From NCBI GenBank assembly GCA_965233585.1, contig CBDDTI010000437.1, positions 1 to 42,259 of the forward strand: DNA of 42,259 nucleotides, in the 5' to 3' direction. The DNA comes from a bacterium (GTDB lineage Bacteria > SAR324 > NAC60-12). Both the position numbers and the translations under genes were made by a program. Of the stretch, positions 9,362-36,712 are shown piece by piece. Position 1 is the stretch's first letter; the number at the start of each line of letters is the position of its first letter. Under the pieces are notes generated by a model. It searched no databases. It saw only the letters and a program-made list of their open reading frames with translations, and had not been told where the DNA came from.

Positions 9362-9657
9362 ACAACAGCTTCTAACCTTCTTTTCCTTATCCAGCGAACC
9401 TACCATAAACTTGGCTGACCTATTACAATCTTTCTCTCTGCTTCCACCTAACCATGACATTTTCCAAGTAGATAATTTGATTTGTATCTGTCCAACTAAC
9501 TCCTCCTCAACAGTAAGTACTCCAGATACTGTCACCATAACGGAGGATAACACCACCACACTTCCTAATGACCTCCCTACCCAAGGTGATGGAGAGAATA
9601 CCTTTTATGACAACATGACGATCAATGATGATGGCACCATTTCCTTTGGTAATGTTA
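9362..9657 (+). pseudogene. Direct fragment of gypsy env-like ORF (copy of 15866-16161)
   Basis: 296-bp direct repeat with few substitutions (QGDG vs QGYG, NMT vs NIT). Confidence 0.95.
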
Positions 9658-10009
9658 GACAGCTCCTTTGAATGAAGTGACTGTCCCTCTAATTGGTGGT
9701 TGCTTGTATCTTTGGATGGAAATGAAGTGAATGTTTTGGGTGCTTAAGAGGTTGCAGCATAGAGATGGAATGGGGTTTAGATTGCCTCTTTGCCTGTAGT
9801 AATCTTCCCTCTAATTGATGAATTTTGGTGTCTTTGGATGAAGGCAAGAAACCAATGTTTTCAGTTGGTCAGAGGTGATTATTTTTTGAAGCTTTATGTG
9901 GACGCTGAAAACAGGTGGAGAGATGGCAGGAGGAGAGCTTTGAAGTTTATTGTGTGCGCTTGTGCTCTGAGGTGCGCACCACTGTTTGAGAAAATGAAAT
10001 ACTAAATCG

Positions 10010-13600: not shown

Positions 13601-15013
13601 GACAAAGGTGAATTGCTCTTCAAGGCAAACATTCAGGGTCAGGACCTGCAAGTGCTGGTGGTTCCAGAAACTTTGCAACCCATCATCATGGCTTATTACC
13701 ATGCTGATAACCACTGTGGGGGCAACTCCTTGGCAGGAGTTCTAACCTCCAGGTTCTACTGGCCTAATATCCGAAAAGACTGCTCAGACTTTGTGAGTGG
13801 CTGTCACCTATGTGCCATCTTTCGGGCACAGAAAAATCCAGAAACTGAGCTGGGTAAAACCTCTGACTACATTCCCAGATTGAAAACATATTGCTGGTCT
13901 GTAGATATTTTAGAAGGGTTCCCTGTGTTTGGACCATACAATGGACAAATTCTGGCAGTGGCTGAGCATTACACTCATTTCAGAGTCTTAAGACCACTAA
14001 AGAAATCTCATGCCACAGAAATTGCAAAAATCTTGGAGGAGGTCATTACCACCTTTGCACCCTCCATGTTCATTTCGGATAGGGGAACTAACCTTTTGAT
14101 GAGTCAACAAGTCAAAGAACTCTTTACTAAATATAATATCAAGGGCCATGTCACTGTACCTTACAGCGGCAAGTCTCATGGTATGATTGAAGCTTTGCAC
14201 AAAAGTGTCAGTGCTTTAATCCGGATCTGTGTGGAAGAACAACAGACTGCGAACTGGCCCAGCCTAATTCCATATATTCAACTGACCTTGAATCAAAAGA
14301 AGTTGTGCTACTTTGACAACTATTCTCCTTTTGAGTTGATGTTTGGCATGGAACCAATTCGTAGTCGTCGAGACCCACCCACCGAATCTGAGATATTTCG
14401 GACTCCTGACAACACCATGGCTGCCTGGCACAAAACAAACAGTGCCATCCAGGCCACCATTGAGAAACATTTCCGGAAATTGCAAAGACAGTATGACACT
14501 CTAACACTCAAACCTCGCCCTTTCCCGGTAGGCAGCTTTGTATATCTGCGTGATTTGCGACCAATCCCAAATAAAAAAATCAAGGCTAGGTATTTTCAGC
14601 AACCCCTCAGAGTAATGGAAGAGAGGCCACAATCATTATTGCTGAAATCCTTTGATGGGAGGTTGCTAAAAGTACACAAAGATAATTGTAAACGGGCACA
14701 TCCCAGAGGAGAAAAAGCCTTTGGCTCACTGCCCACTAGAGTGAAAATGGCATTGGGAACTCCATTTGCCTATAGTGACCTAAAAGATCTCATGGATAAG
14801 GAACAAATACCGGAATTTTTTAAAGATAAAGACACCATACCCCCACCTGAACCAATACAAACTAGGTCCAGGACGAAAAAAACGAACCACCCGGGGGTAA
14901 AGGTTACCGTACCGACAGACATCCCACCCATGGTGGATATAAACCACTTAGATGATCCCGAGCCTATGCAAGACATAGCACCACCAATGCTAGAGACCAT
15001 CTTTGAGGAATGA
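10700..15013 (+). CDS. pol: Pol polyprotein (protease, RT, RNase H, integrase), in frame with gag
   Basis: Protease IDPGAVVSIL. RT SPYASPLFLV, LDLTSAF, YQDD, KCKF. RNase H VDGS, EALA, ADMLSR. Integrase HADNH..CHLC, VDIL, SDRG, IEALH. The frame is open from 10700, straight after the gag TGA. Confidence 0.95.
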   Translation, partial: DRGDKWDRRNHRHHYTTQHTHPINRNCHLHSSHRHFPLKSPKHTKTHAQNTHYTKKQKIWKERFRPYSNKKQKNSRHFRINKILRQRLGSLHANVIIDYKTSVEFQIDPGAVVSILNENTLHQLLRSHPRAVRPLENYRPLRITDYSNNTISTVTPHTLAFMIGDHPQSTLVHWPFYVVRSGDNLIGLDLLAHLKANLIWKGQQMMLVSKDFMIRNVFRTLHKDKAFESNINIVHSIPTKDTQLPPELRNPSDPLVPNNNTDKIDTEVDMDEVVLERLANLTTAPSPDWTHGILKQGLPKQISDRLIAFFTQDYAKLVPRDEFDPGCLNPDIYMIEDFGATGPPVRSKVIPLHGEMRDRLKRIIDIYIERGLMTRGISPYASPLFLVKKNPLPGQPIRDRMVANYKALNKTLNPLAYPNQDIQSIFTKIGNAKPVLFSSLDLTSAFTSVQIKPGSKAMMQSSVITDFGQFHMTRLGMGISSSPAIFSIVMDKILTNIPPPRFKNYPAQHSFVVWYQDDVCIFTTQAEDMSQNDLYQLHLLQINVILAKISAAGLKINPAKCKFFRTEIPLLGRLITRQGFTPLEKHIQQLKDFPRPSTVKGIQQFMGTCNFLRQHIPNFSQKIAPLTELLRKNTPFIWADTQDKAFKTLKNDICNTSQTTYPDFEENLYLYVDGSNVAVGNVLLQIKTIPDAEFNKAKGLKDDELDQPILLQQGKNVPQVTDVWGNQVDSIKFDPNRHLIMPIAFGSKALTPSQKQYSTIKLEALAIVTAFHQHQDILKGAKRIVLVSDSSPLLYILKGSTKISLLERWSLYLQSFNYNICVSHVSGTHNTIADMLSRRSAFMVTDKPSDNFNTKTAFEFKSPYPIGSVITYRHLREALEKDPSLVQPINNIESAEMSPVSKSSANPLEPADPIPKAQIAKVNSPLSLVEELKPLVSSSAIVAAQASDDFCNHISSNLEKHPKFIKSDKGELLFKANIQGQDLQVLVVPETLQPIIMAYYHADNHCGGNSLAGVLTSRFYWPNIRKDCSDFVSGCHLCAIFRAQKNPETELGKTSDYIPRLKTYCWSVDILEGFPVFGPYNGQILAVAEHYTHFRVLRPLKKSHATEIAKILEEVITTFAPSMFISDRGTNLLMSQQVKELFTKYNIKGHVTVPYSGKSHGMIEALHKSVSALIRICVEEQQTANWPSLIPYIQLTLNQKKLCYFDNYSPFELMFGMEPIRSRRDPPTESEIFRTPDNTMAAWHKTNSAIQATIEKHFRKLQRQYDTLTLKPRPFPVGSFVYLRDLRPIPNKKIKARYFQQPLRVMEERPQSLLLKSFDGRLLKVHKDNCKRAHPRGEKAFGSLPTRVKMALGTPFAYSDLKDLMDKEQIPEFFKDKDTIPPPEPIQTRSRTKKTNHPGVKVTVPTDIPPMVDINHLDDPEPMQDIAPPMLETIFEE

Positions 15014-15047
15014 TTTTTGGAAAGGAGCTAATCATTTTATTTGCAGG

Positions 15048-16376
15048 ATGATATGCATAATCAGTCTTATCATAGGACTTCACATAGATGTCACCTGCTC
15101 AACCACTAACCATACCACATCTGGCAAACCCAGCACGGACATCCCTGATGACAACCTCTGCCCAACATCTTTCATTTACTCCTTCCAGGAACTCCAGGAG
15201 GCAATCGAGTTAAAAATGGTACATGTCGACCTTCTGTTGAGCCAAACAACCAAGGTACCAGATGGTATCACAATTAGCCACCCTGAATACCAGTACATTG
15301 TTGAAAAGCGATTTCTCACCTTTCAACAAGCACATGACTTTTGCCTGCCATTGGAAGTACCTATTGTTGAAATCCACTCAGACAAGGATCTAAATTTCTA
15401 CCATTCCACTTTTCCGGATATTACACAAACTTGGTTAGACACTGGATACTCTGGTAAAACTAAAAAACTAACATTCGCCTCAGGGAAACCTGTTCCAGCT
15501 CTTCTTAAAGACACACTCACCATGGACCGAAACTTAGTCTCCACCAAACCTTGCACCGTCATTAACTTAAGTACCGGAAAAATAACACAAGTTTATTGTT
15601 CAGCGGCCTACCCCACCATATGTGCAATTCCCAGCCATCAGATAGTGGCAATTAAACTGGTAAAACAACTTAGCACTCTCATTCAGAAACTGTTGCGCAA
15701 ATTTGTTAAAACGGAATTTCTCAGGCCTACCTTCCCGTCCAACACCTGCCCCAACACCACAGACTATGTTTACGACACCTTACACCTGAAACACCCCTTT
15801 TCATACTTACTCCAAACTTCACGAATTGATCCTTACACCCTCTATACTTCGCTACTTGCCTTAAAACAACAGCTTCTAACCTTCTTTTCCTTATCCAGCG
15901 AACCTACCATAAACTTGGCTGACCTATTACAATCTTTCTCTCTGCTTCCACCTAACCATGACATTTTCCAAGTAGATAATTTGATTTGTATCTGTCCAAC
16001 TAACTCCTCCTCAACAGTAAGTACTCCAGATACTGTCACCATAACGGAGGATAACACCACCACACTTCCTAATGACCTCCCTACCCAAGGTTATGGAGAG
16101 AATACCTTTTATGACAACATCACGATCAATGATGATGGCACCATTTCCTTTGGTAATGTTACCACCATCTTGAATCAATTTGGTTTCTCAACCCCAGATT
16201 TGATAAATCTGGTTTGCACAGTCATTGTTGCAATTGTGAGCCTCCTGACAGGTGCACAAATCATCATCCTATGGAAAAGACAGGCCAGGAACAACCAGGA
16301 GCCACCCATCCCTATTCACCAAATTCGAAGTCATGAACCCCTACTTCAAAATCAACCGATTATCAGCATAAGATGA
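15048..16376 (+). CDS. Env-like type I membrane glycoprotein with a C-type lectin-like domain
   Basis: Signal peptide MICIISLIIGLHIDVTC after a splice acceptor TTTTATTTGCAG (AG 15045-15046). CTLD-like pattern LTFQQAHDFC..IVEIHS..TWLD..CTVIN..VYCS..TIC. Multiple N-x-S/T sites and a C-terminal TM LVCTVIVAIVSLLTGAQIIILW. Confidence 0.8.
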   Translation: MICIISLIIGLHIDVTCSTTNHTTSGKPSTDIPDDNLCPTSFIYSFQELQEAIELKMVHVDLLLSQTTKVPDGITISHPEYQYIVEKRFLTFQQAHDFCLPLEVPIVEIHSDKDLNFYHSTFPDITQTWLDTGYSGKTKKLTFASGKPVPALLKDTLTMDRNLVSTKPCTVINLSTGKITQVYCSAAYPTICAIPSHQIVAIKLVKQLSTLIQKLLRKFVKTEFLRPTFPSNTCPNTTDYVYDTLHLKHPFSYLLQTSRIDPYTLYTSLLALKQQLLTFFSLSSEPTINLADLLQSFSLLPPNHDIFQVDNLICICPTNSSSTVSTPDTVTITEDNTTTLPNDLPTQGYGENTFYDNITINDDGTISFGNVTTILNQFGFSTPDLINLVCTVIVAIVSLLTGAQIIILWKRQARNNQEPPIPIHQIRSHEPLLQNQPIISIR

Positions 16377-16476
16377 CCAAAGCCTTCCCACCCAAAGCCC
16401 TTGTTTGATAAGCGTGGAAAACATCATATTCACCTCCGGCAATACTTGTCATATACCTATGTCCTTACCTAAATGC

Positions 16477-16989
16477 TCAAAAATCAACCCTCACCAGTTG
16501 CTCCTGTCCAACTTCCTCATCCTGATGGAGATTACCCATGGGAATCTCCTCAACCAACTGTTCCACTGGCCTGAAGACACACCAACACAGCCAATTCTTC
16601 ATTTCACAGATGATCTTGACACCATAGAGACGTATGAAGAGTAAAACCCATAGGGACCACGGCACCATGACCAAAGTCAATGTCTCCCAGCTTCTTCCTT
16701 GCAACCATGAGACACACTCTTCTTCCTTGTGGTATTCTTCTGTAGGTGGGCATGCTTTCATCTCCAACGAATCTTTCCCCTCACTGGTGAGATTTCTGTT
16801 CTTGCACCAGTCAGCCAACACCTGCCCACAGCTGCCCCAATCTCTAGAGATTATTTCTGCCAGCTCAACTGCGAAGTTTTCACATACCAGTTGACCAACC
16901 ACCATGGGGACAAACAGCAATCCTGGAAAGAAAAACATCATTAACATGAATGGGATGCTTACCCAATTCATACCGAGTAAGAATTTCAT
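16477..16989 (-). CDS. Antisense 170-aa predicted membrane protein
   Basis: ATG start, hydrophobic N-terminus, Cys-spaced middle domain, TM-like TLTLVMVPWSLWVLLFI, and a Cys-containing then acidic tail. Confidence 0.5.
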   Translation of the reverse strand: MKFLLGMNWVSIPFMLMMFFFPGLLFVPMVVGQLVCENFAVELAEIISRDWGSCGQVLADWCKNRNLTSEGKDSLEMKACPPTEEYHKEEECVSWLQGRSWETLTLVMVPWSLWVLLFIRLYGVKIICEMKNWLCWCVFRPVEQLVEEIPMGNLHQDEEVGQEQLVRVDF

Positions 16990-17083
16990 GATCTAGTTTT
17001 CTGTGCTCTCTCTGCAACACACCACTCCTGAATAACTTCCATTTCTAATGCAATCATGAAGGAGTAAATTATTCTACATTTAG

Positions 17084-17500
17084 CTACTTGATTAATGGAC
17101 GGCTTCTAGTCCTGTTGCTTGGATAAAAGCATAAAAGAGATCCTTCCTTGTAAATATATTGCATCAAGTTTTGCATCAGTCTATGCACTGTCAATACATC
17201 TTCATCTAAATTAGGCAAAACCCAAATGGATTTTGTCTGGTCTAAAATTTCGGACTTTATGTCTTCTTCCGAAGAATTTATAGATGTTAATTCGTTTTTT
17301 AGCGTGATGAAACAAGGTTGGCCTTTTGACAAAGTCAATTGGTTGTAATTGTAATGTAATCCAATAGACACTACCCCAATTTCCCATTCTCTATTTTTCA
17401 AGTCTAAACTTTGTGGGAATAAATTGGTAAAAGAATTCAAAGTATTTTTGTCATCCGTATCGGAACTAGCGTTTGACACGCAATAAATATTATAATCCAT
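17084..17500 (-). pseudogene. Minor capsid protein (penton), N-terminal part, 3'-truncated
   Basis: SNAS...NTLNSFTNLFPQSLDL...WEIGVVSI matches the typical Polinton penton N-terminus. The ORF runs into gypsy-derived sequence. Confidence 0.75.
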
Positions 17501-17506
17501 TCCGCG

Positions 17507-18595
17507 TTATTGTGGCATATCAACTATGTCTTTTTCGTATGTCCAACTAGGGTTTTTATACCCTTTCCATTTTATTAAAGCCATTTTTTCTCCGGTTTTT
17601 TTATCTTTTTTTGTCCGAAGAATTTTTTCGATGGCAAATACTTCCGGCTCATCTACGGGTGTAAGTTCACTCTCATAAAAATTTCCTTCCAAAGTTTCAT
17701 CCTGTTCTAAAGTCTCCAACTCATAAGTGGGTTTTGGCAAACGTGTAGAAATTGATTTTATTTTAAAAATTTCTTCTTTGAATTGCGGTGTAAATCCTCT
17801 GTCAAATTTTCCCTTCATAATGCTAATACGCACAGTTTGGCCGATTTTGTATTTTGGTTTCATTCTTTTAATCTTTGAATAAACCAATTCTTGTTTTCTT
17901 CTAATGTGATAGGTTTTTCCGGGGAGTTCTGCTTCAGCGGGTGTCATTCCAATCATGCGATGTTTACGATTGTTGTAGGTATGGACAAGAAATGGTAACG
18001 CGTCAATGTACCTGTCAGTATTTTCGTGAGTCATGTATTTGAACAACAGGTTTTTTAAAGTTCGGTTAAATCTTTCCACAAAAGGGGCGTGCACAAAATT
18101 ATTGCTGTGTAACAAAAGAATGTTATTGTTTTTGCAGTAGGCTTGAAATAATTTATTCTTAATTTCCGCTCCTTTATCGGCTAAAATTCTACGCGGAAAT
18201 TGTTTTGCTCTTTTCATAATAGATTCAAACCCTTCCATAAATGTTTTTGCCGTTTTATTAATAAGTGGTTCTACAAAGGCGAATCGTGTAAAAATATCGA
18301 TGGCTGTCAAAAGGTATCTATTAGAATCATTTTGTTCAGCCAAATTTCCTAAATCTATAAGGTCAATTTGAAACTGATACCGTTTCCGATAAGCAAATGT
18401 TGGATTTCTCGGTCTGGGAAATTTAGCCTGTTTGTGTAATGTGTAAGAGTCTGTTCCTTTTAGCCACTCCTCGATTAACGTCAGAGGGATTTTTTTCCCA
18501 TAATAATGATAAATTAGCGCGGGAGACGCAAAAGCTATTGGTGAACCCGGTTTCGCGTATTCTTTTAAAAAAGTCTCTTTCGTTGTTATCGACAT
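17507..18595 (-). CDS. int: Retroviral-like (rve) integrase with C-terminal chromodomain
   Basis: DDE motifs QIDLID, ADKGAE, VERFNRTLK. C-terminal FAIEKIL...LIKWKGY..SW. Confidence 0.95.
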   Translation of the reverse strand: MSITTKETFLKEYAKPGSPIAFASPALIYHYYGKKIPLTLIEEWLKGTDSYTLHKQAKFPRPRNPTFAYRKRYQFQIDLIDLGNLAEQNDSNRYLLTAIDIFTRFAFVEPLINKTAKTFMEGFESIMKRAKQFPRRILADKGAEIKNKLFQAYCKNNNILLLHSNNFVHAPFVERFNRTLKNLLFKYMTHENTDRYIDALPFLVHTYNNRKHRMIGMTPAEAELPGKTYHIRRKQELVYSKIKRMKPKYKIGQTVRISIMKGKFDRGFTPQFKEEIFKIKSISTRLPKPTYELETLEQDETLEGNFYESELTPVDEPEVFAIEKILRTKKDKKTGEKMALIKWKGYKNPSWTYEKDIVDMPQ

Positions 18596-18997
18596 TTAAA
18601 ACAGAGGTTCTTTAGAAATTTTGCGCCTTTTTTTCCTAGATTGCGTGATTGACGAGGATTTCCTTTTTTTGTTTGAATTTTGAGTTCGATAATCGTCGTT
18701 GCTATCGGCTTGTCGGGCAGCGTTAAGCAAAATACCTCGCGTAGCGGATTTCAAACGTTGTTTTGCTTTTCTGCCCACCGGTTGACCCTCCAAAGCTTCT
18801 ATTGCCGTTTCTACAGCCGCTCTTGTCGCTTCTTTCTTTAAAGCTTTTCCTACAGATTTTATCGGGGCGCTTTTAGCTACACGTCCAATAGTTTTTATCG
18901 TTGATTTCGCTACCGGCATTAATCCGCGAAAAATTCCGGAAAAAAGCGATCCAATTCCCGAACCTCGTTGCCAATGTAAACCGCTGTGGTAATTCAT
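18596..18997 (-). CDS. Basic virion core protein with amphipathic N-terminus (adenovirus pVI-like)
   Basis: QRGSGIGSLFSGIFRGLMP, the conserved Polinton Q.G.G motif followed by an amphipathic helix. Basic C-terminus. Confidence 0.75.
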   Translation of the reverse strand: MNYHSGLHWQRGSGIGSLFSGIFRGLMPVAKSTIKTIGRVAKSAPIKSVGKALKKEATRAAVETAIEALEGQPVGRKAKQRLKSATRGILLNAARQADSNDDYRTQNSNKKRKSSSITQSRKKRRKISKEPLF

Positions 18998-19006
18998 ATA
19001 TGTATT

Positions 19007-19765
19007 TTATTGATTTAGACTTTTACGACATCTGTACAACGACATAACACTGACGCCTAAAATGTGAGCCATATTTTTGACGCTTAAATACCTCAATTTG
19101 GATTCTTTTAAAAAGGCATAAGCGCATGCAGCTAATAAAGTTCTTGGAGCAAAAGAACTATTTTCATTTTTTTTTAATATTTGTTCAACGGACGTCATTT
19201 CTTGATAATTTAACTGCAGCGGCTGTAAAAAATATTCTTTCATATCTTTTGCCTTTATGTAATTGTCTAATTTATTCATGTCAGTCAAATCCCGTCTGTA
19301 TAATTTCATCCAACGCCACACTATCTTTGGATTAATGCCGACTTCTTGACACAAATGACTTATCGGGCGGGGAATTTTTTCTTTTATTAACCCCTGATAC
19401 AACGTCATTACCACCAATCCTTTAGCATCCATTTTAATTTTTCCGCCTTTTTGATAATGCCACGCTGCTATATCTGACCATAGATTTAAAATAACATTTG
19501 TAACATCATTATTTAAATGTAATTTATTACATAAAATTTTTAAAATATTTTTTTCTTTCTCTAAATGCTGGTTTTTTTGTTTAATTTCTTTATCAAATGT
19601 TTTTATTTTGTCCCATTCTGTTTCCAAATTTGATTTTGTTAAATTATAACAATATATTTTATCAATAACTAATCCACACTCGGTACACACCACGTCTCCT
19701 TGCCTGGTGTCTTCTACTGGATATTGATGATTGCATATTTTAGTATAATCTACTTTCTCGTGCAT
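19007..19765 (-). CDS. TFIIB: TFIIB-like transcription initiation factor
   Basis: Zn ribbon CNH...EDTRQGDVVCTECGLVID and a B-reader-like EWDKIKTF. Two cyclin-fold-like repeats: LCNKLHL...PRPISHLCQEVGI and PRTLLAACAY...SVKNMAHILGVSVMSL. Confidence 0.85.
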   Translation of the reverse strand: MHEKVDYTKICNHQYPVEDTRQGDVVCTECGLVIDKIYCYNLTKSNLETEWDKIKTFDKEIKQKNQHLEKEKNILKILCNKLHLNNDVTNVILNLWSDIAAWHYQKGGKIKMDAKGLVVMTLYQGLIKEKIPRPISHLCQEVGINPKIVWRWMKLYRRDLTDMNKLDNYIKAKDMKEYFLQPLQLNYQEMTSVEQILKKNENSSFAPRTLLAACAYAFLKESKLRYLSVKNMAHILGVSVMSLYRCRKSLNQ

Positions 19766-19821
19766 GATTTCGATGTTTATTGTATAGATATCAAAACTCG
19801 ACTAAATAAACATTATTCACA

Positions 19822-20364
19822 TCATTCAATTTTATATTTTTTTAATAATTTAATAATAATTTTTATTCCTTGTTTAGCATCTTCTTCGCTGGAGGCTCCA
19901 ATTATAACTATTTTTCCTGACGAAAATATTAAAGCTGAACATTTTTTTATTTTTAAAAATACGCCTGGGAATTTTTCTGGATCATATCTCTTAAGAATAA
20001 TTTCAAAATCTTTATTCGATTTTAAATGGTTGTATAATTTTAATAATTTAATCTCTTCTTTTGATTGATACAAACAAGTCATGTTTTCTACTTTAAATAT
20101 TTCAACAACAAATTCGTTACTTATAATAAATTTTAGTTCGTCTAATGCTTTCGCAATGTGTTCTGTAGAGGGGATTTTTGTAATGTTTACGTGAAAATGA
20201 CGATTTTGCTTTGTTTTGGTAAATATAATAAAGGAATATTTTTTTCTTATTACAACAAAATTATTATAACGTTTTATTGTATTATCAGTATTAAAAGAGA
20301 TTTCGTCGCTGTTGATAAGATGAACTTTACAACTAATTTTTACATTGCTGACCAACACTTCCAT
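19822..20364 (-). CDS. TBP: TATA-binding protein-like (180 aa)
   Basis: Two-repeat structure VSNVKIS / VENMTCL. The second repeat YDPEKFPGVFLK...ALIFSSGKIVIIGASSEED is canonical TBP. ATG at 20364. Confidence 0.92.
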   Translation of the reverse strand: MEVLVSNVKISCKVHLINSDEISFNTDNTIKRYNNFVVIRKKYSFIIFTKTKQNRHFHVNITKIPSTEHIAKALDELKFIISNEFVVEIFKVENMTCLYQSKEEIKLLKLYNHLKSNKDFEIILKRYDPEKFPGVFLKIKKCSALIFSSGKIVIIGASSEEDAKQGIKIIIKLLKKYKIE

Positions 20365-20370
20365 TTTGTT

Positions 20371-21714
20371 ATGGGCGTACCTGAAAAAAGTGGAATTGCC
20401 GGATTGGCCGTTGAACAAAACGACGGCACCGAAAGTGGTTTAGCGCTTCACTCACCGTTAGAAGTAGAAACGGGTTTATTAGATGGAGCTCACGTTATTT
20501 ACAATAGCGTGGCTTCTATTACCAACACCGGACCGGTCGAATTTCTTGTTCCTCGCGATAACGAATGCTCTTTTATACTGAATCAAACCAGACTTAGCGG
20601 CTATTTTGTAGTGACAAATGACGATGGTGAACAGGTAAAAAATGATACTAAAGCCACACTGGCTAATCATTTTGCCGCTTGTTTATTCAGCCAAGTAGAA
20701 GTATATTTAAACGGGGTCCAAGTAGCTGATTTAAGTTCAGCGGTCACTTATCCTTGGAGAATGTTCATACAATCATTTTTAAGTTACAATTCAGAGGTGA
20801 AAAAAACTTATCTGGCTGCTGAAGGGTATTATCCCGAAAATGCTGACGAAGTTGATACCATAAATCTTACAGCCGCCACACCTTCTTTGAATAAAAGAAA
20901 GCAGTTAATTATGGACGGTAAAAAAGTGTATTTTAATACGCGCTTAGCCGTTGATCTGTTTGACACCGACAGATTTTTACCCCCAAATGTGGATATCAAA
21001 ATCAAGCTGGTTAGATCCGCTGAAAAGTTTGGTTTGCTTCAAGATGCTGCGGCAGAAAAACCTTTTAAAATTGTTTTAAAAGATGTTAAACTACATATGA
21101 GAAAAGTGTTGCCCACATTATTGCTGAGAGAAAGTTTTAAAAACAAACTTTTAAAAGAACCGTGCTACCTACCTTTTAGCGCTACACGTTTAAGACATTA
21201 TGTTATTCCTCAAGGTGTGTCGTCCTTCAACATCGCTAATATCGCTAATGGTACTTTACCGAAACAAGTGTTTTTTGTGATGGTTCACAATCAAGCCATG
21301 TCACACGCCCCGGACAAAAACCCTTTCAACTTTCAACATTTTAATCTGTCTACTTTTAATTTAAAAAAGAACGGTCAATGCGTATTTCCCAGACCATTTC
21401 AACCTAATATAAACGAGGGGGACGCCATTGACTTGTATCGGCATTTATACGACAGTATTGGCATTTCGCACGGCAATCAATCCATCGGTTTAACGTATGA
21501 ACAATATTTAAAAGGAAGATTTTTTCTAGCGGCCGATTTAACACCGGATCAATGTAATTCGTTCCACGTGCATCCAGAAAATTACGGAAATTTAGATTTA
21601 GAATTGGCTTTTTCCGTAATAACTCCTCATCCTATATACGTCCTGGCTTTTTCTGTTTTCAACTCCGGCATCAAAATAGATCAATTCCAACAAGTTATAA
21701 AAGGAACAAATTAA
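20371..21714 (+). CDS. Major capsid protein (double jelly-roll, Polinton PY), 447 aa
   Basis: GPVEFLVP, LFSQVEVYLNG, TYPWR, PPNVDIKIKLVRS, NPFNFQHFN, DLTPD and GNLDLEL match the Polinton MCP. Likely ATG at 20371. Confidence 0.92.
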   Translation: MGVPEKSGIAGLAVEQNDGTESGLALHSPLEVETGLLDGAHVIYNSVASITNTGPVEFLVPRDNECSFILNQTRLSGYFVVTNDDGEQVKNDTKATLANHFAACLFSQVEVYLNGVQVADLSSAVTYPWRMFIQSFLSYNSEVKKTYLAAEGYYPENADEVDTINLTAATPSLNKRKQLIMDGKKVYFNTRLAVDLFDTDRFLPPNVDIKIKLVRSAEKFGLLQDAAAEKPFKIVLKDVKLHMRKVLPTLLLRESFKNKLLKEPCYLPFSATRLRHYVIPQGVSSFNIANIANGTLPKQVFFVMVHNQAMSHAPDKNPFNFQHFNLSTFNLKKNGQCVFPRPFQPNINEGDAIDLYRHLYDSIGISHGNQSIGLTYEQYLKGRFFLAADLTPDQCNSFHVHPENYGNLDLELAFSVITPHPIYVLAFSVFNSGIKIDQFQQVIKGTN

Positions 21715-21717
21715 ATC

Positions 21718-22200
21718 ATGGAAAACGGATTATCAAATATCTTTTTATCCAATTATATTCAACCAAGATGTAAATATTTCATCGGGGTTTTTTCAAGCGA
21801 TAATTTGCCGTCTGATTCGCTTAAGTTGCCTTGTTGCTTAATCACTAACTTATCAAAAAAAAATCAAAAAGGATCACATTTCATAGCGATGTATATTAAC
21901 GGAAAAAATCAACTCTATTATTTTGATTCATTCGGTTTTTTACCGCCGATATGGAATCGATCTTTAATGAAGTTCTTACGACCTTGGATAGAAAAAAACT
22001 CATTCAAAACAATTCTGTCTTACTCCATTCAGGATTTTCATTCATTGTTTTGCGGCTGGTACGTGACCGCTTTTTGTTTATCCGTGGGCAACAATTTAAT
22101 GTCTCCTCAACAATTTGTTAAAATATTTGTAAAAAAACCCAAAATAAAAAATGATGAAATTGTAACTCATTTTATAAAAAAACTTGAAAATAAACGATGA
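21718..22200 (+). CDS. Adenain-family cysteine protease (virion maturation)
   Basis: FIGVFSSD, GSHF (His), YFDSFG (Asp), IQ....FCG (Gln/Cys). Confidence 0.95.
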   Translation: MENGLSNIFLSNYIQPRCKYFIGVFSSDNLPSDSLKLPCCLITNLSKKNQKGSHFIAMYINGKNQLYYFDSFGFLPPIWNRSLMKFLRPWIEKNSFKTILSYSIQDFHSLFCGWYVTAFCLSVGNNLMSPQQFVKIFVKKPKIKNDEIVTHFIKKLENKR

Positions 22201-22217
22201 TATATATTTTACTTTTA

Positions 22218-23063
22218 TTATAATTTTGGGTATTTTCCCGGAAAAAGTAATTTTTTTTTAACAGCATCTGCATCAGTTTTTGAAAGTTTTTTTGATTTAG
22301 ATCTAGTTTGTACGGGAGAAATAGTAAAAGTTTTCTTTTTTGCACCTCCTGATCCTGTTTTAAGGGATGACATTGAAACTGAAGGAGATTTTGATGCTTG
22401 TGAAGAGACCGAGGCTATATCTTTACCGATTTTTTCTGTGTCAAATATAGACAATTCTTTCATATGATCTCTTACAAGGTGTTTGCCGAATTGCGCATCG
22501 TCAACATACTGCTTCCCGCATGCGCTAAAAGGACAAACTATTTTGCCGTCTGAATTTTTTTGTGTCAAAGCCTTTATAATAGGCGAATTTCGCCATTCTG
22601 GCACGTCAGAACTTAAAGTATCGTCCTTGCTTTTTGGTTTTGAAGCGGTATAAAACAAGTCTGGATCGGGTTCTCTTTCCATAATGGGAGTAGTGGGTGA
22701 AAACTGAGCGGTATTTTCTTTTTGTTGGGGAGTTTGAGCGGTTGTTGATCTTGAAATAGATTGGTACGTGCGACCCGCACTGCTATCGATTTGTACTGGC
22801 GGCATAACATTCGATATATTATCAGAACCAAAACGATACAATTTATCGCCGCTTTGATTCATTTTTTGCCTGTCTTGTAAATTTTTAAAATTAATGGCAT
22901 TTTCAATGTAATTGGTCGTATTTGGTTTTTCATTCATAGAAATAAGTTCTTTTTTTGTTTCATTATCTTCTATATTTTTTATTAAAGAATGATATAGCCT
23001 TTTGGGGACTAAAAACATAGAGTATATTTCATCATTTGTTTTTCTTTTCACGCCTGAACTCAT
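22218..23063 (-). CDS. Polinton hypothetical protein with a C2H2 zinc finger and basic tail
   Basis: ATG at 23063 just after the PW stop. N-terminal MFLVP motif typical of the ORF following PW. Zinc finger CPFSACGKQY....FGKHLVRDH. Confidence 0.75.
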   Translation of the reverse strand: MSSGVKRKTNDEIYSMFLVPKRLYHSLIKNIEDNETKKELISMNEKPNTTNYIENAINFKNLQDRQKMNQSGDKLYRFGSDNISNVMPPVQIDSSAGRTYQSISRSTTAQTPQQKENTAQFSPTTPIMEREPDPDLFYTASKPKSKDDTLSSDVPEWRNSPIIKALTQKNSDGKIVCPFSACGKQYVDDAQFGKHLVRDHMKELSIFDTEKIGKDIASVSSQASKSPSVSMSSLKTGSGGAKKKTFTISPVQTRSKSKKLSKTDADAVKKKLLFPGKYPKL

Positions 23064-23067
23064 CCTT

Positions 23068-23442
23068 TTAACGACGACGTTGTAAGCTTTTTTTTGCAAT
23101 AATTTGAGCTAAAATAGGGACGATAATGCTGGCAATTGTTGATAAAGTTCCTAAAATTCCGCCCCTTTGTAGTATTATTCTTTTTTTTGAAATGTCGGAA
23201 GAGCGACGAGGCGGCGTGGCAAGACGTCTAAACTCCCCTAAATGAGCTCTTATTTTTTTCTGAAGTCGTGTTCGCACTTCGCCATGTAAGGGCAATTCAC
23301 CGTTCAAAACGTAATGTAAAATACGACAAAGCAATTCAACGCCGCGATCGTCCAAATAATTTAAAAAATTTGCGCAATCTTGATGTTTTAATTTTTTTAT
23401 TGCATTAAAAAGCGAACTAGCTTTTTCTAATTTTTTTGACAT
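23068..23442 (-). CDS. Polinton PW-like basic core protein
   Basis: LC.I...VLNGELPL and KKRIILQRGGILG followed by a hydrophobic tail; located downstream of the ATPase. Confidence 0.8.
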   Translation of the reverse strand: MSKKLEKASSLFNAIKKLKHQDCANFLNYLDDRGVELLCRILHYVLNGELPLHGEVRTRLQKKIRAHLGEFRRLATPPRRSSDISKKRIILQRGGILGTLSTIASIIVPILAQIIAKKSLQRRR

Positions 23443-23489
23443 TTTAACAGTAATTGTTTTTAATTTTTCTTAAATAGATATGAAATTTT

Positions 23490-24185
23490 TTAAACAGTAA
23501 CGTAGGCTTTCATTAATCCTTCATAAGAAAAGATGTTACTTCGAATTCTGACTTTATCGTCTTGCTGTTGATGGAAATCTAGAAGAAGATATCCGTGACT
23601 TCGGCCGTTAACTGCTTCTCTATATGCTTTATTTAAAATTCCAACACGACCGGGAAAAATTTGTTTTGCCAAATGTGTGATGGCGCTTCTGTCCCGTGGA
23701 TTGTTAAAAAGGATCATGTATTGCGTATTTATGCTCAATGTCCGTAAATCGCCTTTTTTGTCAAATAAATTTTGGCAAAGAAAAACGGTGAAACAATTGT
23801 AATGATGAGTCAAAACCGTAAAAAAATGTTTTAATATTTGCCCAACATCGTCTAAATAATCGTCAAAAACAATCAATTTGGGCATTTTTCTCGGATATAA
23901 TTCTAAAATATCTTTCAACTCTTCAATTGAATTTGGAATATTTTTGAATTTACGAAAAGACGGAAATTGCGTGTCAGAACCTTTGCCCTCGTTCATGTCA
24001 TCTTCCATGTACTGATATGCTTTTTGCGGCTCCTTGTAAAACAACAACATTGTTTCAGGCGGAGTTGCAAAATACTCGTGTCGACGAAGCACTAAATGTT
24101 TTAACCACGTTGTTTTTCCGCTTGATGTTGGACCGACAACCAACATGTTGGACGGAATATTAAACCTCAAATCAAAACCGTTCAT
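23490..24185 (-). CDS. A32/FtsK-like DNA packaging ATPase
   Basis: Walker A GPTSSGKT, Walker B LIVFDD, QNLF, RTLSINTQY...NPRD, GYLLLD. Confidence 0.95.
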   Translation of the reverse strand: MNGFDLRFNIPSNMLVVGPTSSGKTTWLKHLVLRRHEYFATPPETMLLFYKEPQKAYQYMEDDMNEGKGSDTQFPSFRKFKNIPNSIEELKDILELYPRKMPKLIVFDDYLDDVGQILKHFFTVLTHHYNCFTVFLCQNLFDKKGDLRTLSINTQYMILFNNPRDRSAITHLAKQIFPGRVGILNKAYREAVNGRSHGYLLLDFHQQQDDKVRIRSNIFSYEGLMKAYVTV

Positions 24186-24242
24186 TTTTTTAATTTTAAA
24201 AAAGAAACTACAAAATTTTCTTTTAAATAAAAGTAATGATTT

Positions 24243-27200
24243 TTATTTACAAATTTGGCATTTAGACATTTTGTTGTTAACAATAAGGCAATTTCCTAGC
24301 GATAAAGTGTGACATCCACAATTTAAAACATATCTTTTAGAATCCATTGCCGACAACGCAATTTTTCTTTGAAAACACGTTCGGATTTTGTGATTTTTTG
24401 ATCTTAAATTTTTAAAAGATTTGTAAATTACAACAGTTTGCTTTAAGCACTTTTTGTAATCTGCATAAGTTAATTGCTTTTTTATACTAGATTTTTTTAA
24501 ACCTTTGCATACTTTTTTCTCATCAGTTTTGTTTTTGTCCAAAAAATCGACTATTTTCATTGAATAACATTTTGGACGTAAGCCTATAAAATCAGTAATA
24601 GCCGCTCTACCTTTTAATTCATCTTTGAAATAAAAAAGTTGATTGGCTTTACTGTTGTCAAAAAGTGGATGTTGTTTAGGGTACTTTGAAAAATCAAACA
24701 TGTGTTTCAATCTCTTCATTTCCCTTTCCAAATTGTTGCATGTAACTTTTAAAAGAAAAGAATCCGTGTCCGAAAAACACAAAGACACATTGTCTTTGCC
24801 GAAATGTTTTTGAATGGTGTCATAGTATGATCTGTACATGAACAACTTGGACAACTCCAGAATGGAAAATCCGACGGCTAAAGGCTTTCTAAGCTCTATC
24901 ATTGCCGGCTTCTTGTTGACAGCCACCAAATTCTCATTAATAATTTGAAAATTGTTGATGTGTTGACCAAGACTGGCTTTCCTCAAGCTTTTTTCATCTC
25001 CACAAAGCACCACTTCGATGTAATTTCGAACATTTTCTGAAAAATATAAAATTAAATAAATATTTTATAAAGAATACAACATTTTTTATAAAAATTCATT
25101 ATAAAGTGTGTAGGAGTTTGGAGATTTATTTTTTAAAAACTTCCTAAAACCATGTGGCAATTTTCAAAACAAACTTTCAAAACAAAAAAAAAGAAAGAGG
25201 ACAGTGATGATGATGATGATGATGATGATGAAGAGAGGATATATGAGGTTGAAGGATGAGGAGGACGACGACGAGCAGTGGCTGCTGAAGGAGGAGAAGG
25301 AGGAGAAAAAGAACCGGAGACCGGGGGGCGTAATCGGACGGATCCGGTCGGCCGTGGCCGGCATTTTCCGCCGCCTGATGCTCCGCCGCCCGCTGCCGCC
25401 TCCGCCACCGCCAGCGCCGCTGCCGTTGCATTCTCTGTTAGCGTTGCTGTGCTTGCCGCCAGCGGCGCTGGCGGCGGGAGGCGGCAGCGGTCGCGCTGTC
25501 CGAGGCCTTCAAAACGAAAATTTTATTGCGCCTGACGTGCCCACCGGCATTCTTGTTGATCTCCCCACCAACACCAACGTCCCCACCGAGGTGCCCACCG
25601 AGGTCCCTACCGAGGTCCCCACCGAGTCCCCATCGAGGTGCTCACCGAGGCCCCCACCGAGTCCCCCATCGAGGTGCCTCATCGAGGCCCCCACCGAGTC
25701 CCCCATCGAGGTGCTCATCGAGGCCCCCACCGAGTCCCCCATCGAGATGCTCATCGAGGCCCCCACCGAGTCCCCCATCGAAATGCTCATCGAGGCCCCC
25801 ATTGAAGTCCCCACCGCTGAAATTCCCTCCAATGTCCCCATCGATGTGCTCATTGACGTCCCCGTCCCCATCGAGGCGCCCACCGAGACCCCCACCGAGT
25901 TCCCCACCGAGGCGTTTGTCGAATTTCCCATCGAGATCCCCACCGACAACCCCATCGAGGCTCCCATCCCCATTAGACTCCCCGCTGACGACAGATCTTT
26001 TGCCGCCAGACGTCGGGCGACGGAGATTGTCCGCCTGGCTAAAATCCGGGCGGCGGAAAACCGGATGGCGGATTTTGACGGGGAGGTCATCACCGTGGAG
26101 GCTGAGGTTCACGCGCCTCCCGACAACATTGAAGATGCGAATGAGCGTGTGGTGTGTACTGCCAACACATTTTGCACTAAATATTGGCAGTACCACCACA
26201 CGCTTGTGCAAATATAAAAATACAAAAAAGATTTAAATCCGGGTATTTACTTACCGATAAACTTTCCAAAAGTAGAGTTGGCAAAAAGCTTAAAAAGTCG
26301 AAGTTCAAAATCGTTGCGGGCGTTTGATCGTAGCATCGTGACCTTTTCAATAAACTCTTTTAAAAAAGCTTTTTGCCGAAACTTCACAGCTCTTCTTATC
26401 CTCAACAGTTTCATGCCTTTTTTCAAATAATATTGTAGATTTTCCAGATGCACCACGTACTTTTTTCGATCATAAAAAGTGCTCAACAGTTTCTTGCTTC
26501 GGTATCTTTTGTTCTTATAATCTCGAGGGTTAAGATGTTTTAGTAAACGACGATTATAAGGAGACAGATGTTTGTAAGAAACCGTGTCTGTATACGGAGC
26601 CAGCGGAAATTGATCATGTGTCTGTAAATATTTTACCGTTTATCAAAATGCAAAACGTGTTAAAAAGATCAGATTTACCGGGTGAAGATGAGGAGGATAA
26701 TGCAAATCAACTTCGAATGCGTACCCGGTCTCGTCTTGAGAAGGAATCTTGATAATATCTTTGGCAGTCCATTTTTCAAGATCTTTTTTTGCAACCCACT
26801 CGAAATCAGAAACTGGCAATTTTAAAGTTTCCATGCTCCCGTACAAGTTGTTTGCTAAAAAGTCACCGATTTAAAATAAATAGATTAATCAAACGATGCA
26901 GTATAAAATTACCGTCAATGTAAAGTAAATGATCGCCACTTTTTCTCGGATTGCTGTTTCCTTTTGCATAACGCTGAGAGATAAAGCTTTGTCCGCCTCT
27001 GATACCCTTTGTGAAAAAGTGCTCCATTTCAGGATCGGAATAGATATCCAGAGATCCTAGAGGTTTGGAAGATTCACCCGCGAGGTTATCTTTTGTTGTT
27101 GTAGCTCGTTCAGAATTTTGATAGAACATAAGCATAACATCAAAACTTAGTCCAGGAATTCCTAAATTAAACGAAATAAATTTCATATTTAAACTTTATA

Positions 27201-29037
27201 TGTCAAGCAACAGAAAAGAAATTTACCTAAGTAATAGATTGGATCCAATTGAAAATGTTCCATAACCATTTTTCTGTATTGAAGAAACGCTTCACATAGC
27301 AGGATAACATCCAAAGAACAATAAAGCATCATGTAATCCGCCACATTCTTGCACTTGAACAGTTTGAAGACTTCTTGCGCATGAGAATAATCCGTTTCTG
27401 AGATGTGTTCTTCATTTAATTCAGAATAAAAAGCATCTTTGGTTGGGAGGTTTCGACTCTTTTTCATTTCTTGTAATGATTGAAAATGCTCGTAACAAAA
27501 AATGCCTTTTCTTTTTAAAAGTTTAAAAGCTTTTGATTTTTGACGGATAGGAATTTTTTTGAATCTTTCCATCTGTTGTAAAATAGGGAAAGAAAAGTTT
27601 GAAGTTTGATTTAAATCTTGGACAAGAGCGTCTAAGCTGGCAGATATGTGCTCTAATGAATCCTGAATTTTGAATCTGCCTAATGTAAGAGTGCGGAATT
27701 TCTCACTGTTTCTAGCCAAGACTTCCGGCATTCTCTTGAATCGGCGAATGTTTAACTCTTCTATGATCAGATGCAAATCGTATCTGAAACGTTTAATTTG
27801 TAAAATTGATTGGAAAAAATAAAATAAATAAAAAATTTTACCCTTGAGCGTTGTGAAAAAAAATTGGCGTATGATAGGGTCCGGATCTTGTCAAATTGCA
27901 CAGCGAATGAGCCGCACCCATTATTTTTCCTGTGACATGATCGTGATCCAAAACCTTTCTATACTTTTTAGGATGGGTAGCAAATCGAAGACCGCATATA
28001 TGACAAACGGTTGCTTTTCGAAACATTTGCCATTCCTCCTGGGTGGCTTGAGTTTTGAGAACATCTCTGAATTTTTGTTTTCTTTCTTCAACAACTTTTT
28101 CGTAGAGAGGTATCCGATCCAAAAAACGTTTAGCCGCATCCTCTCCTAAATATTCTTCTTGAAAGAATACTTCATTTTCGGAGTCCACAAAAATCAGGCT
28201 GTAGCCTACCGGTCTATGCACATTTATATCGTCACTTGTGGGAAAAGCACATAAGCATTCCAATTTAGAACAAAGTCGACATTTAGATCGTTCCTTGTTT
28301 CTTTGAAGTACACTTTCAAAATCACAAAATCCCACAACAGGCGCTTTAAACTTATGTTTGTGGTTAGAAAAACTTATAGCAGCATTTTTGCCAGGATAAA
28401 TGGTGCGTTGCTTATCGTAGCAAATCCGCTCATGCTTTTCTTTCTTGGATTTTGATCGGAAACGCAGCAGACATTTTTCACAGTGGATGTACTTCTGTTG
28501 ACCCGCTTTGTTAATCGACAACAGTCCGGCCCGATTATTCAAAAAACCTTGGAGTTTTGTAATTTTAAAGAAATGATGCTGTTGATTTAAATCTTTGATT
28601 TTTTTAGGAAACTTGGAAGGAAAACTCGATTTTTTGGGACGGGAATTACTAGAAATTTTATCGGAAGAGATTTTAGGATCGTGTTTTATCATTAACAAAT
28701 GTAGAGTATTTTCTCTCCTATCGTTGTTTTTGTTAGTAATAAACCCTAACTTTGAAACGTGGCCTTCACTCTCATAAAGTACGGAAATTGAAATTGGTAA
28801 ATGACGATTTCTATACAAAAATTTTTTTATGTCACAAAATTGAAGAGGAAACGTAAAACCTTTTATGTTAAATTTTTTAAGATATTTTACTGGCATTTGA
28901 CGAAAATCTGTAATGGAAGCAGTTTCTGGAAAAAGATGTCTAATGTACAGATAAAGAAAGTTGAATTTATCATATCGAGTATTCCATTCCAAGCAGTTAG
29001 ATCTTTTTAAATTTCGCGGAATTTCTATAAAATCCAT
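24243..29037 (-). CDS. polB: Protein-primed family B DNA polymerase, 6 exons, 1112 aa
   Basis: Exons 29037-27842, 27783-27227, 27161-26913, 26854-26679, 26621-26255 and 25036-24243. All introns are GT-AG. Splicing restores HNAQGYD (Exo II), IDANNLYG (motif A), LHPTHDQFPLAP and KLFANSTFGKFIENVR (motif B). DTDS, Exo I DFES, a C2H2 finger and an Endo VII-like CHIC..DHDH..CNL are also present. Confidence 0.93.
25207..26217 (+). CDS. Nested antisense GC-rich ORF with Pro/Glu/Thr repeats inside pPolB intron 5
   Basis: A ~336-codon frame lying wholly within intron 25037-26254. Compensating -1/+1 indels in the repeat keep the frame. The start within the ATG run is uncertain. Confidence 0.5.
   Translation: MMMMMMMMKRGYMRLKDEEDDDEQWLLKEEKEEKKNRRPGGVIGRIRSAVAGIFRRLMLRRPLPPPPPPAPLPLHSLLALLCLPPAALAAGGGSGRAVRGLQNENFIAPDVPTGILVDLPTNTNVPTEVPTEVPTEVPTESPSRCSPRPPPSPPSRCLIEAPTESPIEVLIEAPTESPIEMLIEAPTESPIEMLIEAPIEVPTAEIPSNVPIDVLIDVPVPIEAPTETPTEFPTEAFVEFPIEIPTDNPIEAPIPIRLPADDRSFAARRRATEIVRLAKIRAAENRMADFDGEVITVEAEVHAPPDNIEDANERVVCTANTFCTKYWQYHHTLVQI
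25575..25975 (+). repeat. 12-bp-based / 36-bp tandem repeat
   Basis: ATCGAGGCCCCCACCGAGTCCCCCATCGAGRTGCTC units and CCCACCGAGGTN subunits. Confidence 0.85.
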
Positions 29038-29087
29038 TTCCAAAGCTTACTTGAATTTTTTATATACAACAAAATAAGTCCTTTAAA

Positions 29088-34771: not shown

Positions 34772-35254
34772 GAAGTTGCAGCAAATGTTTATACAAAGAC
34801 GTGTGATGTATTACTGAAATAGTTTATGACATAAAAATAATAAATTTAAAATTAAGCGCGCTCTTTTATTTTAAAATTAAGGATAATAGTCTGCTACTTA
34901 AAAATTAGACACAGCGGCAGAAAAATCATCCAAAAAATCAAAATAAAATCAAACGTGATTTTTTCTGTTAATAAATAATTGCGACATTTGGTTGGGTTGA
35001 GAATCTTTTCGTAAACACCGATAAACAATAACTGTTGAAAAGTTGAACATGTATATATTTTTGATAAAATTATCGAGCGGAAATTATTGTTTATGACAAT
35101 AGCTTTGGTGCGAGTTATGATTTGTTGATGCAAAACGAGTTGCGCTTTAATTTGTGTTTGTTTTGGAGAACGGAAACTTAAACATTGTCGTTCTCAGAAC
35201 CTTTCTTCGCGCCCCCGAACTGATTCAAAACGTGGAAAGTGGGAAAAATTGAAG

Positions 35255-35565
35255 TTGCAAACGGCTTGCAATCGGCTTGCAACAGGCCGATTGCAGACGA
35301 AAACAAGCCGATTACAGGCTCGATTGAGCCTGTTGCAAGCCGATTGCAGACGAAAACAAGCCGATTGCAGGCTCGATTGAGCCTGTTGCAAGCCGATTGC
35401 AGACGAAAACAAGCCGATTACAGGCTCGATTGAGGTTGTTGCAAGCCGATTGCAGACGAAAACAAGCCGATTGCAGGCTCGATTGAGGTTGTTGCAAGCC
35501 GATTGCAGACGAAAACAAGCCGGTTGCAGACGATTACAAGCCGATTTCAGGTTGAAACAGGCTCA
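35255..35565. repeat. Subterminal 53-bp tandem repeat (~5 copies) with internal hairpin
   Basis: CGATTGCAGACGAAAACAAG at 35288, 35341, 35394, 35447 and 35500. CAGGCTCGATTGAGCCTG hairpin in the first units. Confidence 0.9.
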
Positions 35566-36712
35566 ATGTAGATGCCATCAAGGTGTTTTGAGAGCGCATC
35601 AAGATGGTTTTTATCGGTAAACGGATGGTTGAAAGACGGTTTCAGCCTGTTTTAAGGTGTTTTGAGAACGTTTTAAGGTGATTTTAGAGCGTAACAAGCT
35701 CGAATGAGAGTGATGTAGGGACATTACTCCACACAGCTTCTATTCCTTTTAATATTTCGATGATGCGTACCAAGCTTTTTCTTTCTTTATAGACCATTTA
35801 ATAAAGTACTTTCCAAAAAATTTTGTTTATCTCTTCACTGACGCCAATTTAAGAAAAATTCCATAGTTAAAAATTGTTAAGCAGAAAATTATGAATCTTT
35901 TAAGATAAAATAATTTCTCAATTTATAGGCTAGAAGCTTGCTTATTGCCTTCAGAAAATGACCAAAAATTGAATACTTAAAGTACCAATAAAACCCTCAA
36001 ATATTCAAACAATCATTTGAAATTGTGTTTTTAAAAATCTTTAAACTTATAAAATTGATATCAAGACTAATGTAGAAAAAGAAAAAAATCTTTTCAATTG
36101 TTAATCTTTTAAGCTTTGTCCTAACAAGAACCAACAATAGAAAAAAATAGACAAAATTTTAGGGCTTTATTAGCTTTACAACTTTCATCACTACAATATT
36201 TTTGAACTTTATGACAAAACTGAACAAACCTGTTACATTTTGCCTCTCTTACTGCATCCTAGAACTCGTCAGAAGTCCGCCTTGGGGCAATCTACCTAAA
36301 CAAACCATCCAAACATTTTCCATTGAGTTTCAAGCTGAGATTGATCCTTTTTAAAGGATATTGTGAATTATTATTGAATAGATTATAGTCAGAGATATGT
36401 TTTACTCGATTGAATTGTAACAATTTAATGACCTCAATACACTTTTGAACCTCATGACACCAGCAGATGACACCACAAGTCCTTTGTCACTTAGCTATTC
36501 TCTTTGTGGGTAATGGCATGGCTGCTAGTTGTCTCAAAGTGCAACAGATGGCGTTAGTCAATGTTATGTAATATTCCTCTCCCAAACTTTCTCCGTAAAT
36601 CTGAAGCTAGCGCCATTCACAGGATGTTGTCTGAAACTAGAGTCATAAAGAGAATTCAAACAGAGTTAGTGAAGCGCTTCACTTGACTCAAGAGTTGATT
36701 GATGCTCTTCCA

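Follow-up and report, generated by a model that had tools for sequence, protein, structure and literature searches.

A TBP/TFIIB gene pair in a Polinton and a candidate promoter box within its TBP gene

The window analysed here, a stretch of 42,259 nucleotides (contig C437), holds a copy of a Polinton of about 23 kb that carries adjacent genes for a TATA-binding protein (vTBP) and a TFIIB-like protein (vTFIIB), and a candidate promoter box, CWNTATYTAAR, lies antisense within the TBP gene, upstream of the putative capsid gene. We consider it probable that host-driven expression of vTBP and vTFIIB comes early, that the two proteins then direct the host's RNA polymerase II (Pol II) through the box to virion genes, and that this step possibly damps the pair's own expression. 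To our knowledge, essentially nothing is known of how Polintons control their virion genes.

Results

The TBP/TFIIB pair is carried by a Polinton

The assembly combines about 3 Mb of gene-dense bacterial DNA with low-coding eukaryotic contigs, and because the remainder beyond the bacterial portion is low-coding, the window is eukaryotic DNA inside a bacterial bin. A search of the assembly for host TBP, host TFIIB and mitochondrial COX1 found none of them. Sister copies in the assembly match the window at about 98% from 17141 to 35727, and complete ones measure about 22.9 kb with inverted repeats of about 540 bp (for example C30 1003-23884). With its terminal repeats, a length within the 15-25 kb range of Polintons, 41 integrated copies, a retroviral-type integrase and a family B DNA polymerase (weak Pfam match to DNA_pol_B_2, E 0.075), the carrier of the pair is a Polinton of about 23 kb. 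The ATPase and protease have weak Pfam matches only, and the capsid and penton have no Pfam or PDB sequence match; the putative capsid is named from its size, its position and a profile match (Table 1) to a like ORF of another Polinton type.

The sequence-only reading had described intact, intronless TBP-like and TFIIB-like ORFs in tandem between the integrase and core-protein genes and the capsid gene, in an element with no RNA polymerase subunit. Both ORFs are indeed uninterrupted and lie on the minus strand; the order runs integrase, core-like protein, TFIIB, TBP, capsid-like ORF, as described, and no RNA polymerase subunit was detected by Pfam among the 20 window proteins scanned. The small protein X is one that we take to be core-like. 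The most likely capsid start is 20371, which puts the gene head-to-head with TBP at a distance of 6 nt from the TBP ATG; a longer ORF from 20197 would overlap TBP.

Table 1. Coordinates of the element's features in the window
Feature	Positions	Strand	Evidence
Putative penton gene, 5′ part	17141..17500	-	Sister match stops at 17141
Retroviral-type integrase with chromodomain	17507..18595	-	Pfam rve E 1.3e-8, Chromo E 8e-5
Small basic core-like protein (X)	18596..18997	-	No family match (Pfam)
Viral TFIIB, 252 aa	19007..19765	-	Zinc ribbon Pfam; Foldseek
Viral TBP, 180 aa; canonical repeat 2, rebuilt repeat 1	19822..20364	-	Pfam, profile-profile, structure
Promoter-like box CAGTATTAAAA (family form CWNTATYTAAR)	20286..20296	+	Function inferred
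Putative major capsid protein, 447 aa	20371..21714	+	Size, position, profile match E 4e-15
Adenovirus-type protease	21718..22200	+	Weak Pfam Peptidase_C5, E 0.031
Conserved small basic ORF (X2)	23068..23442	-	
Packaging ATPase	23490..24185	-	Pfam Pox_A32 E 0.0029
Protein-primed DNA polymerase B, five blocks	24243..29037	-	tblastn blocks against intronless PolB-like ORF of C492
Terminal inverted repeat, about 540 bp	35190..35727	.	Matched at either end of sister copies such as C30 1003-23884

The polymerase gene is interrupted by three short GT-AG introns (27841-27784, 27226-27162 and 26912-26855), and a fourth donor at 26254 opens a gap of about 1.2 kb whose acceptor was not located. Because the gene has these short introns as well as the long fourth gap, its structure points to nuclear Pol II transcription. 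The long gap contains an antisense, repeat-rich ORF of 336 aa (25207-26217, plus strand); in other subfamilies the polymerase ORF ends at similar places, and the gap of locus L007 holds different ORFs.

vTBP has a canonical second repeat and a rebuilt first repeat

A marked asymmetry had been noted in vTBP, and Pfam PF00352 reaches repeat 2 only (E 3.4e-19). Two repeat-1 phenylalanines, said to be kept, do align with their canonical TBP counterparts: F36 (NNF) and F48 (IIF). When a profile of 56 family members was aligned with one of 30 canonical TBPs (hhalign), the match covered both repeats in 166 columns at a probability of 99.9, and because of this alignment we regard repeat 1 as homologous, on profile evidence, to canonical repeat 1 though rebuilt. 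TBPs take the top three VIA-align places for the repeat 2 model, with Z 12.0-12.5 and rmsd 1.3-1.7 across 79-84 residues. Residues 1-56 of the model have pLDDT <50 and repeat 1 is only partly modelled, so the two-repeat saddle of PF00352 is recovered from the profile alignment, with repeat 2 at Z 12 in structure.

The residues that we presume to act in DNA intercalation and as the central Asn pair are nearly invariant among the 56 TBPs: F36 is present in 54, F48 in 56, F132 in 56 and F147 in 55, and N7 and N94 in all 56. The hydrophobic reading surface of canonical repeat 1 is missing, with K9 and N60 invariant (56/56) where canonical TBPs have Val. At the stirrups the second Glu is kept in 51 and the first is Asn in 52. 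In TBP-DNA structures the minor-groove surface and the TFIIB contact are lined by these positions, a pattern that suggests an altered DNA specificity and a partner-specific interface of vTBP.

vTFIIB retains a zinc ribbon, two cyclin folds and a terminal helix-turn-helix

The vTFIIB protein comprises a C-x-H...C-x2-C zinc ribbon, an unconserved linker and two cyclin folds that end at a helix-turn-helix (HTH), the layout of TFIIB and archaeal TFB. The ribbon scores just below the curated Pfam cut-off (E 1.2e-6), and relatives pass the cut-off for Pfam TFIIB; the predicted structure likewise shows a ribbon, followed by a disordered segment and then two helical repeats. Foldseek placed human TFIIB first (E 7e-9), followed by yeast TFIIB, archaeal TFB and Brf1, and VIA-align ranked BRF1 first, within 1 Z of TFIIB, which is a tie. 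Among 46 TFIIBs, the zinc ligands C11, C27 and C30 occur in 46/46 and H13 in 40/46; HTH residues S239 and R245 are also conserved among the 46, and the protein ends directly past the HTH. A conserved B-reader or B-linker was not found: the region varies in length and is modelled at pLDDT <50 (residues 36-65). Because this region is unconserved and of low confidence, start-site selection by vTFIIB must, judged from its sequence, differ from that of cellular TFIIB. In the wider family (L012-L097), the final 30-65 nt of TBP are shared with the TFIIB ORF, for which no separate promoter is evident.

The pair is conserved across a family of related elements

Absence of the pair from sister elements had been set as grounds for rejecting its significance. 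The assembly contains 41 TBP copies, 39 of them full-length, in three subfamilies whose TFIIBs are about 95-100%, 73% and 31% identical to that of the window. TFIIB follows TBP in 41/41 of these copies, and a capsid ORF stands opposite TBP in 40/41. The pair was absent from other Polinton types within the assembly. In subfamily 3 there are two tandem capsid-like paralogues (L001 14774-17532, L002 11394-14299, L005 7973-10717), and in L002 and L003 a separate TATTTAAG box lies 91-108 nt upstream of the second paralogue.

A profile search of 1.84 billion representatives recovered more than 100 proteins with the same rebuilt repeat 1 among the best 150 matches. DNA loci were fetched with a 22-sequence subset, yielding 1 viral match, the best 80 of 187 metagenome matches and 32 genome matches; 27 of the 32 were archaeal by title and were excluded, leaving 86 loci, 85 with a callable TBP ORF. 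In these related loci, whose TBPs are 24-37% identical to that of the window, TFIIB lies downstream of TBP in 78/78 and the capsid upstream on the other strand in 72/72 with enough room; as the loci were chosen via TBP, these counts cover TBP-bearing members and not the whole Polinton clade. Viral-contig scans with queries A4, A5, P0189 and a single capsid found no family member (L008-L011 are unrelated TFIIBs), and a scan with a capsid alignment found the L012 contig only.

A second ground for rejection had been placement of the proteins within host TBP/TFIIB clades, as recent neutral captures. In a tree of 76 rows (23 locus TBPs, 23 protein-only sequences and 30 canonical TBPs, with no animal or identified giant-virus TBP among them), the asymmetric TBPs form one side of a branch, apart from all 30 canonical sequences (SH-aLRT 99). 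Between subfamilies 1 and 2, dN/dS is 0.20 for TBP, 0.23 for TFIIB, 0.11 for the capsid and 0.07 for the integrase. A recent neutral capture from the host is ruled out by the dN/dS of about 0.2 and the TBP tree. Seven sequences (P0154, P0188, P0215, P0220, P0233, P0239 and P0256) are deeper-branching asymmetric TBPs with a shorter repeat-1 loop. Other family members are filed as bacterial MAGs or in a giant-virus bin (L093-L097, L012), and because members sit in such records, database labels for this family are unreliable.

A candidate box is maintained inside the TBP gene

The prediction of an altered TATA element was borne out to the extent that a candidate box, CWNTATYTAAR, occurs upstream of the capsid gene. 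After removal of near-duplicates, 59 loci remained, among which 45 capsid ORFs were examined, five loci with doubtful starts being excluded; in the region from 125 to 50 nt upstream of these 45 ORFs there were 41 occurrences of TATYTAA. In the window the box reads TATTAAAA and lies antisense inside TBP codons 24-27; counted from the first T of the box, the capsid ATG is 82 nt away. Across the assembly, 38/39 full-length TBP genes contain the box, as TATTAAAA in subfamilies 1-2 and as TATTTAAG in subfamily 3. Position 4 of the box is C in 31/54 and never A.

Because the box is antisense in TBP codons, protein constraint might account for its conservation, and we therefore examined codon choice in 51 TBPs from outside the window's own assembly (median identity 41%). 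The box Leu codon is TTA in 50/51, against 38% elsewhere (binomial p 3e-20; the loci are akin, so that p-values overstate independence and the counts are not phylogenetically independent). The codon before it ends in a pyrimidine in 51/51 across seven amino acids, and the codon after it ends in T in 51/51. The codon following that one starts with A in 51/51 across five amino acids, and one starting with G in 51/51 was also seen. Codon identity reaches 0.96 at the box column, compared with 0.17-0.76 in 32 other degenerate columns. Judged by codon choice, then, the box is held by selection at the DNA level inside the TBP ORF.

Elsewhere in the elements the box also tends to precede genes. In 19 loci of at least 10 kb, 35/45 boxes stand 28-165 nt before a same-strand ORF (18 capsid genes, 4 ATPase genes and 13 others), and 17/27 precede a gene start when the capsid cases used to derive the box are excluded. 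The reverse complement gave 0/45, and six permuted or related words gave 0-12%. Within the window subfamily the upstream C occurs at the capsid box only; the ATPase, X2 and X have a core lacking it, which is TATTTAAA 44 nt upstream of the ATPase (24229-24222), TATTTAAG 34 nt upstream of X2 (23476-23469) and TATTTAAG 93 nt upstream of X (19090-19083). An internal box occurs with X2 in only 7/22 elements, and the protease, penton, integrase and polymerase genes are mostly without one. Polinton types that lack TBP had the full box in 0/72 ORF upstreams (six contigs). What ties the box to vTBP is that the two occur together, and TBP-less controls are few.

In relatives a distinct, putative host-type promoter precedes TBP

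Of 52 relatives, 29 have CAGT in the 28 nt directly preceding the TBP start, compared with 1/45 for the capsid; the viral box precedes TBP in 0/52. A TATA-like word lies 20-40 nt before CAGT in 19/29, and 20/25 distances fall at 30-33 nt. We take TCAGT before TBP to be an arthropod-type initiator, and in relatives the TBP gene would have a host-type promoter made of TATA and CAGT. A reading of CAGT as a splice acceptor is disfavoured, CAGG occurring in 0/52; for a branch-point candidate, ACTRAY at +28 to +33, inspection by eye showed no conserved AG behind it.

In the window's own clade no CAGT or like initiator is visible before TBP. There the start codons of TBP and the capsid gene nearly touch, with 6 nt between them, or overlap (window 20362-20373; L001 17526-17532; L002 14298-14299), and therefore each promoter must lie in the other gene. 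In the wider family the spacing is about 20-60 nt.

Capsid boxes suggest a start at +31, where 47/50 TBPs carry a pyrimidine at the third base of codon 10 (p 1.5e-8). At other boxes the pyrimidine-purine peak is stronger at +26 (14/23) than at +31 (8/23), and one common start-site distance is not supported. The predicted capsid leader is poor in ATG, with 8 in 1884 nt compared with 95 in the 4350 nt upstream, a deficit partly confounded by TBP codons. The capsid sense strand has six runs of at least five T.

Discussion

A proposed order of events

We propose that host Pol II transcribes the TBP-TFIIB unit early, from a promoter of TATA and CAGT initiator. The products, vTBP with its rebuilt repeat 1 and vTFIIB, would then bind the TATA variant CWNTATYTAAR; the fixed C three bases upstream of TATA is a plausible contact for the TFIIB HTH. 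The zinc ribbon and first cyclin fold of vTFIIB would set host Pol II about 26-31 nt downstream, so switching on the capsid, the ATPase and several other genes. Both the late timing of this step and the redirection of Pol II by the pair are inferences. More speculatively, because the capsid box is antisense inside the TBP ORF, its use might occupy the TBP gene and send transcription across the TBP start, damping the early unit.

The same two proteins might instead act mainly as decoys, sequestering Pol II or general factors of the host, with the box read by host TBP or a TBP-related factor. TATTTAA is a TATA variant that cellular TBP tolerates, and repeat 1 and the B-reader region are so altered that normal initiation is not guaranteed; however, the frequent C and missing A at position 4 are unlike host TATA, the DNA-facing Asn and Phe and the HTH residues S239 and R245 are retained, and TBP-less Polintons of the same host DNA do not have the full box, and we consider decoys unlikely. 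A virophage-like cycle, in which the pair would serve a co-infecting giant virus's RNA polymerase, strikes us as quite improbable. The nearest Atlas clusters are largely viral, with Nucleocytoviricota the commonest label, and the relative L012 is filed in a giant-virus bin, but L012 itself is a complete-looking Polinton, so its label may reflect binning, and spliceosomal-type introns together with a TATA-plus-initiator promoter indicate the nucleus.

That the pair binds the box for replication, packaging or integration targeting finds a precedent in KSHV ORF24, which an excerpt of PMC6541308 describes as acting also at a replication origin. The strict strand and distance bias of the box to gene starts (35/45 against 0/45 for the reverse complement) and the shortage of ATG in the predicted capsid leader, confounded in part as it is by TBP codons, speak against such a role, to which we give very little weight. 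Least credible of all, in our estimate, is a Brf-like protein that recruits Pol III: BRF1 does come first in VIA-align, tied with TFIIB, yet the Brf1-type C-terminal extension is absent and Foldseek puts TFIIB first. Pol III terminates at runs of T, and the six runs on the capsid sense strand would stop it; because of these runs and the GT-AG introns of the polymerase gene, nuclear Pol II is favoured. Redirection of host Pol II by vTBP and vTFIIB remains the reading that we prefer.

Comparison with known systems

The closest parallel is the late pre-initiation complex of beta- and gammaherpesviruses, in which, as an excerpt of PMC6541308 describes, the TBP mimics KSHV ORF24, EBV BcRF1 and HCMV UL87 act with host Pol II at TATT/TATTWAA promoters. 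The Polinton shares with this system a viral TBP-like factor, a predicted use of host Pol II and a modified TATA about 30 bp before structural genes; the window core TATTAAA and the subfamily 3 core TATTTAA both fit TATTWAA. In herpesviruses the mimic is large and itself binds Pol II as part of a complex of six proteins, and none of the Pfam families of the mimic and its five partners was found among the 20 window proteins. The Polinton has instead a stand-alone TBP of 170-190 aa and a true TFIIB fold in an integrating element of about 23 kb, with C common at position 4 and the box inside the TBP gene. By analogy, the pair resembles the herpesvirus late system and is not a member of it.

Chloroviruses, prasinoviruses and CpV-BQ1 encode TBP and TFIIB without an RNA polymerase and, according to an excerpt of PMC12085832, are proposed to redirect host Pol II. 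These viruses are much larger, and in the same excerpt their two genes are dispersed between those for VLTF3, TFIIS and capping enzymes; the structural matches of our pair show only 10-20% identity. Ariadnaviruses retain TFIIB (10.64898/2026.08.29.747986, in part). Poxvirus VITF-3, a TBP/TFIIB-like heterodimer for the viral polymerase, is likewise a stage-specific asymmetric pair, whereas it is described in the excerpted text as cytoplasmic and as acting on an AT-rich core without consensus (PMC12917281). Relative to the cellular TBP-TFIIB and archaeal TBP-TFB systems, the Polinton proteins keep the folds, the Asn pair, the four Phe, the second stirrup Glu, the zinc ribbon and the HTH, and differ in their identity of about 25%, the replacement of repeat-1 Val by invariant Lys9 and Asn60, a first stirrup Glu that is usually Asn and a B-reader that is not conserved.

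A TBP in a Polinton-like element is listed in a figure legend (PMC8502044; also bioRxiv 697771); the excerpted text of these two sources on Polintons, Mavericks and adintoviruses mentions no TFIIB, gene pair, promoter or clade-wide conservation. In the excerpt of 10.1101/2022.05.25.493380, TFIIB is treated in giant viruses only, and in that of PMC12220804 matches to Polinton TBP/TFIIB terms are confined to the reference list. A literature search on Polintons with TBP, TATA or TFIIB, whose scope left outside most subscription journals, figures and bioRxiv supplements (one supplement gave no match), returned no account of the pair or the box. Both appear new for Polintons as a class, none being described in the literature examined.

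We rate as evenly balanced whether a complete temporal switch of two genes, with host-orthogonal CWNTATYTAAR promoters and self-turn-down via the embedded capsid promoter, operates in a widespread clade of Polintons; if so, no smaller viral system for Pol II pre-initiation would be known, and it would be convergent with the TATT promoters of herpesviruses. A 23-kb member of the supposed ancestral group of large DNA viruses here has a trait regarded as typical of those viruses. The proposal names two factors, a candidate 11-base target and an expected order of events, and is testable with two small proteins and a reporter. A natural TBP that would accept C at the fourth TATA position, paired with a TFIIB that appears to have no conserved B-reader, is relevant to the rewiring of promoter specificity and of start-site choice.

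Further features of the window and assembly

In the window the element is cut short within the putative penton gene (a full ORF of 583 aa in L007), against a retroelement. The cut-off gene is bordered by a Gypsy-type LTR retroelement with inverted partial copies (6500-17140), which includes pol (11183-15013) and a C-type-lectin ORF (15048-16376). Positions 1800-6100 and 30400-35700 are 70-83% alike, the former being the end region of a related element, and each such region has a Thr-rich, secreted-looking ORF (1845-2597 and 33446-33898). Among contigs C328, C112, C224, C670 and C435 of the assembly, several have at least two element copies close together. A satellite with a 14-bp period occupies 41220-42100 of the window.
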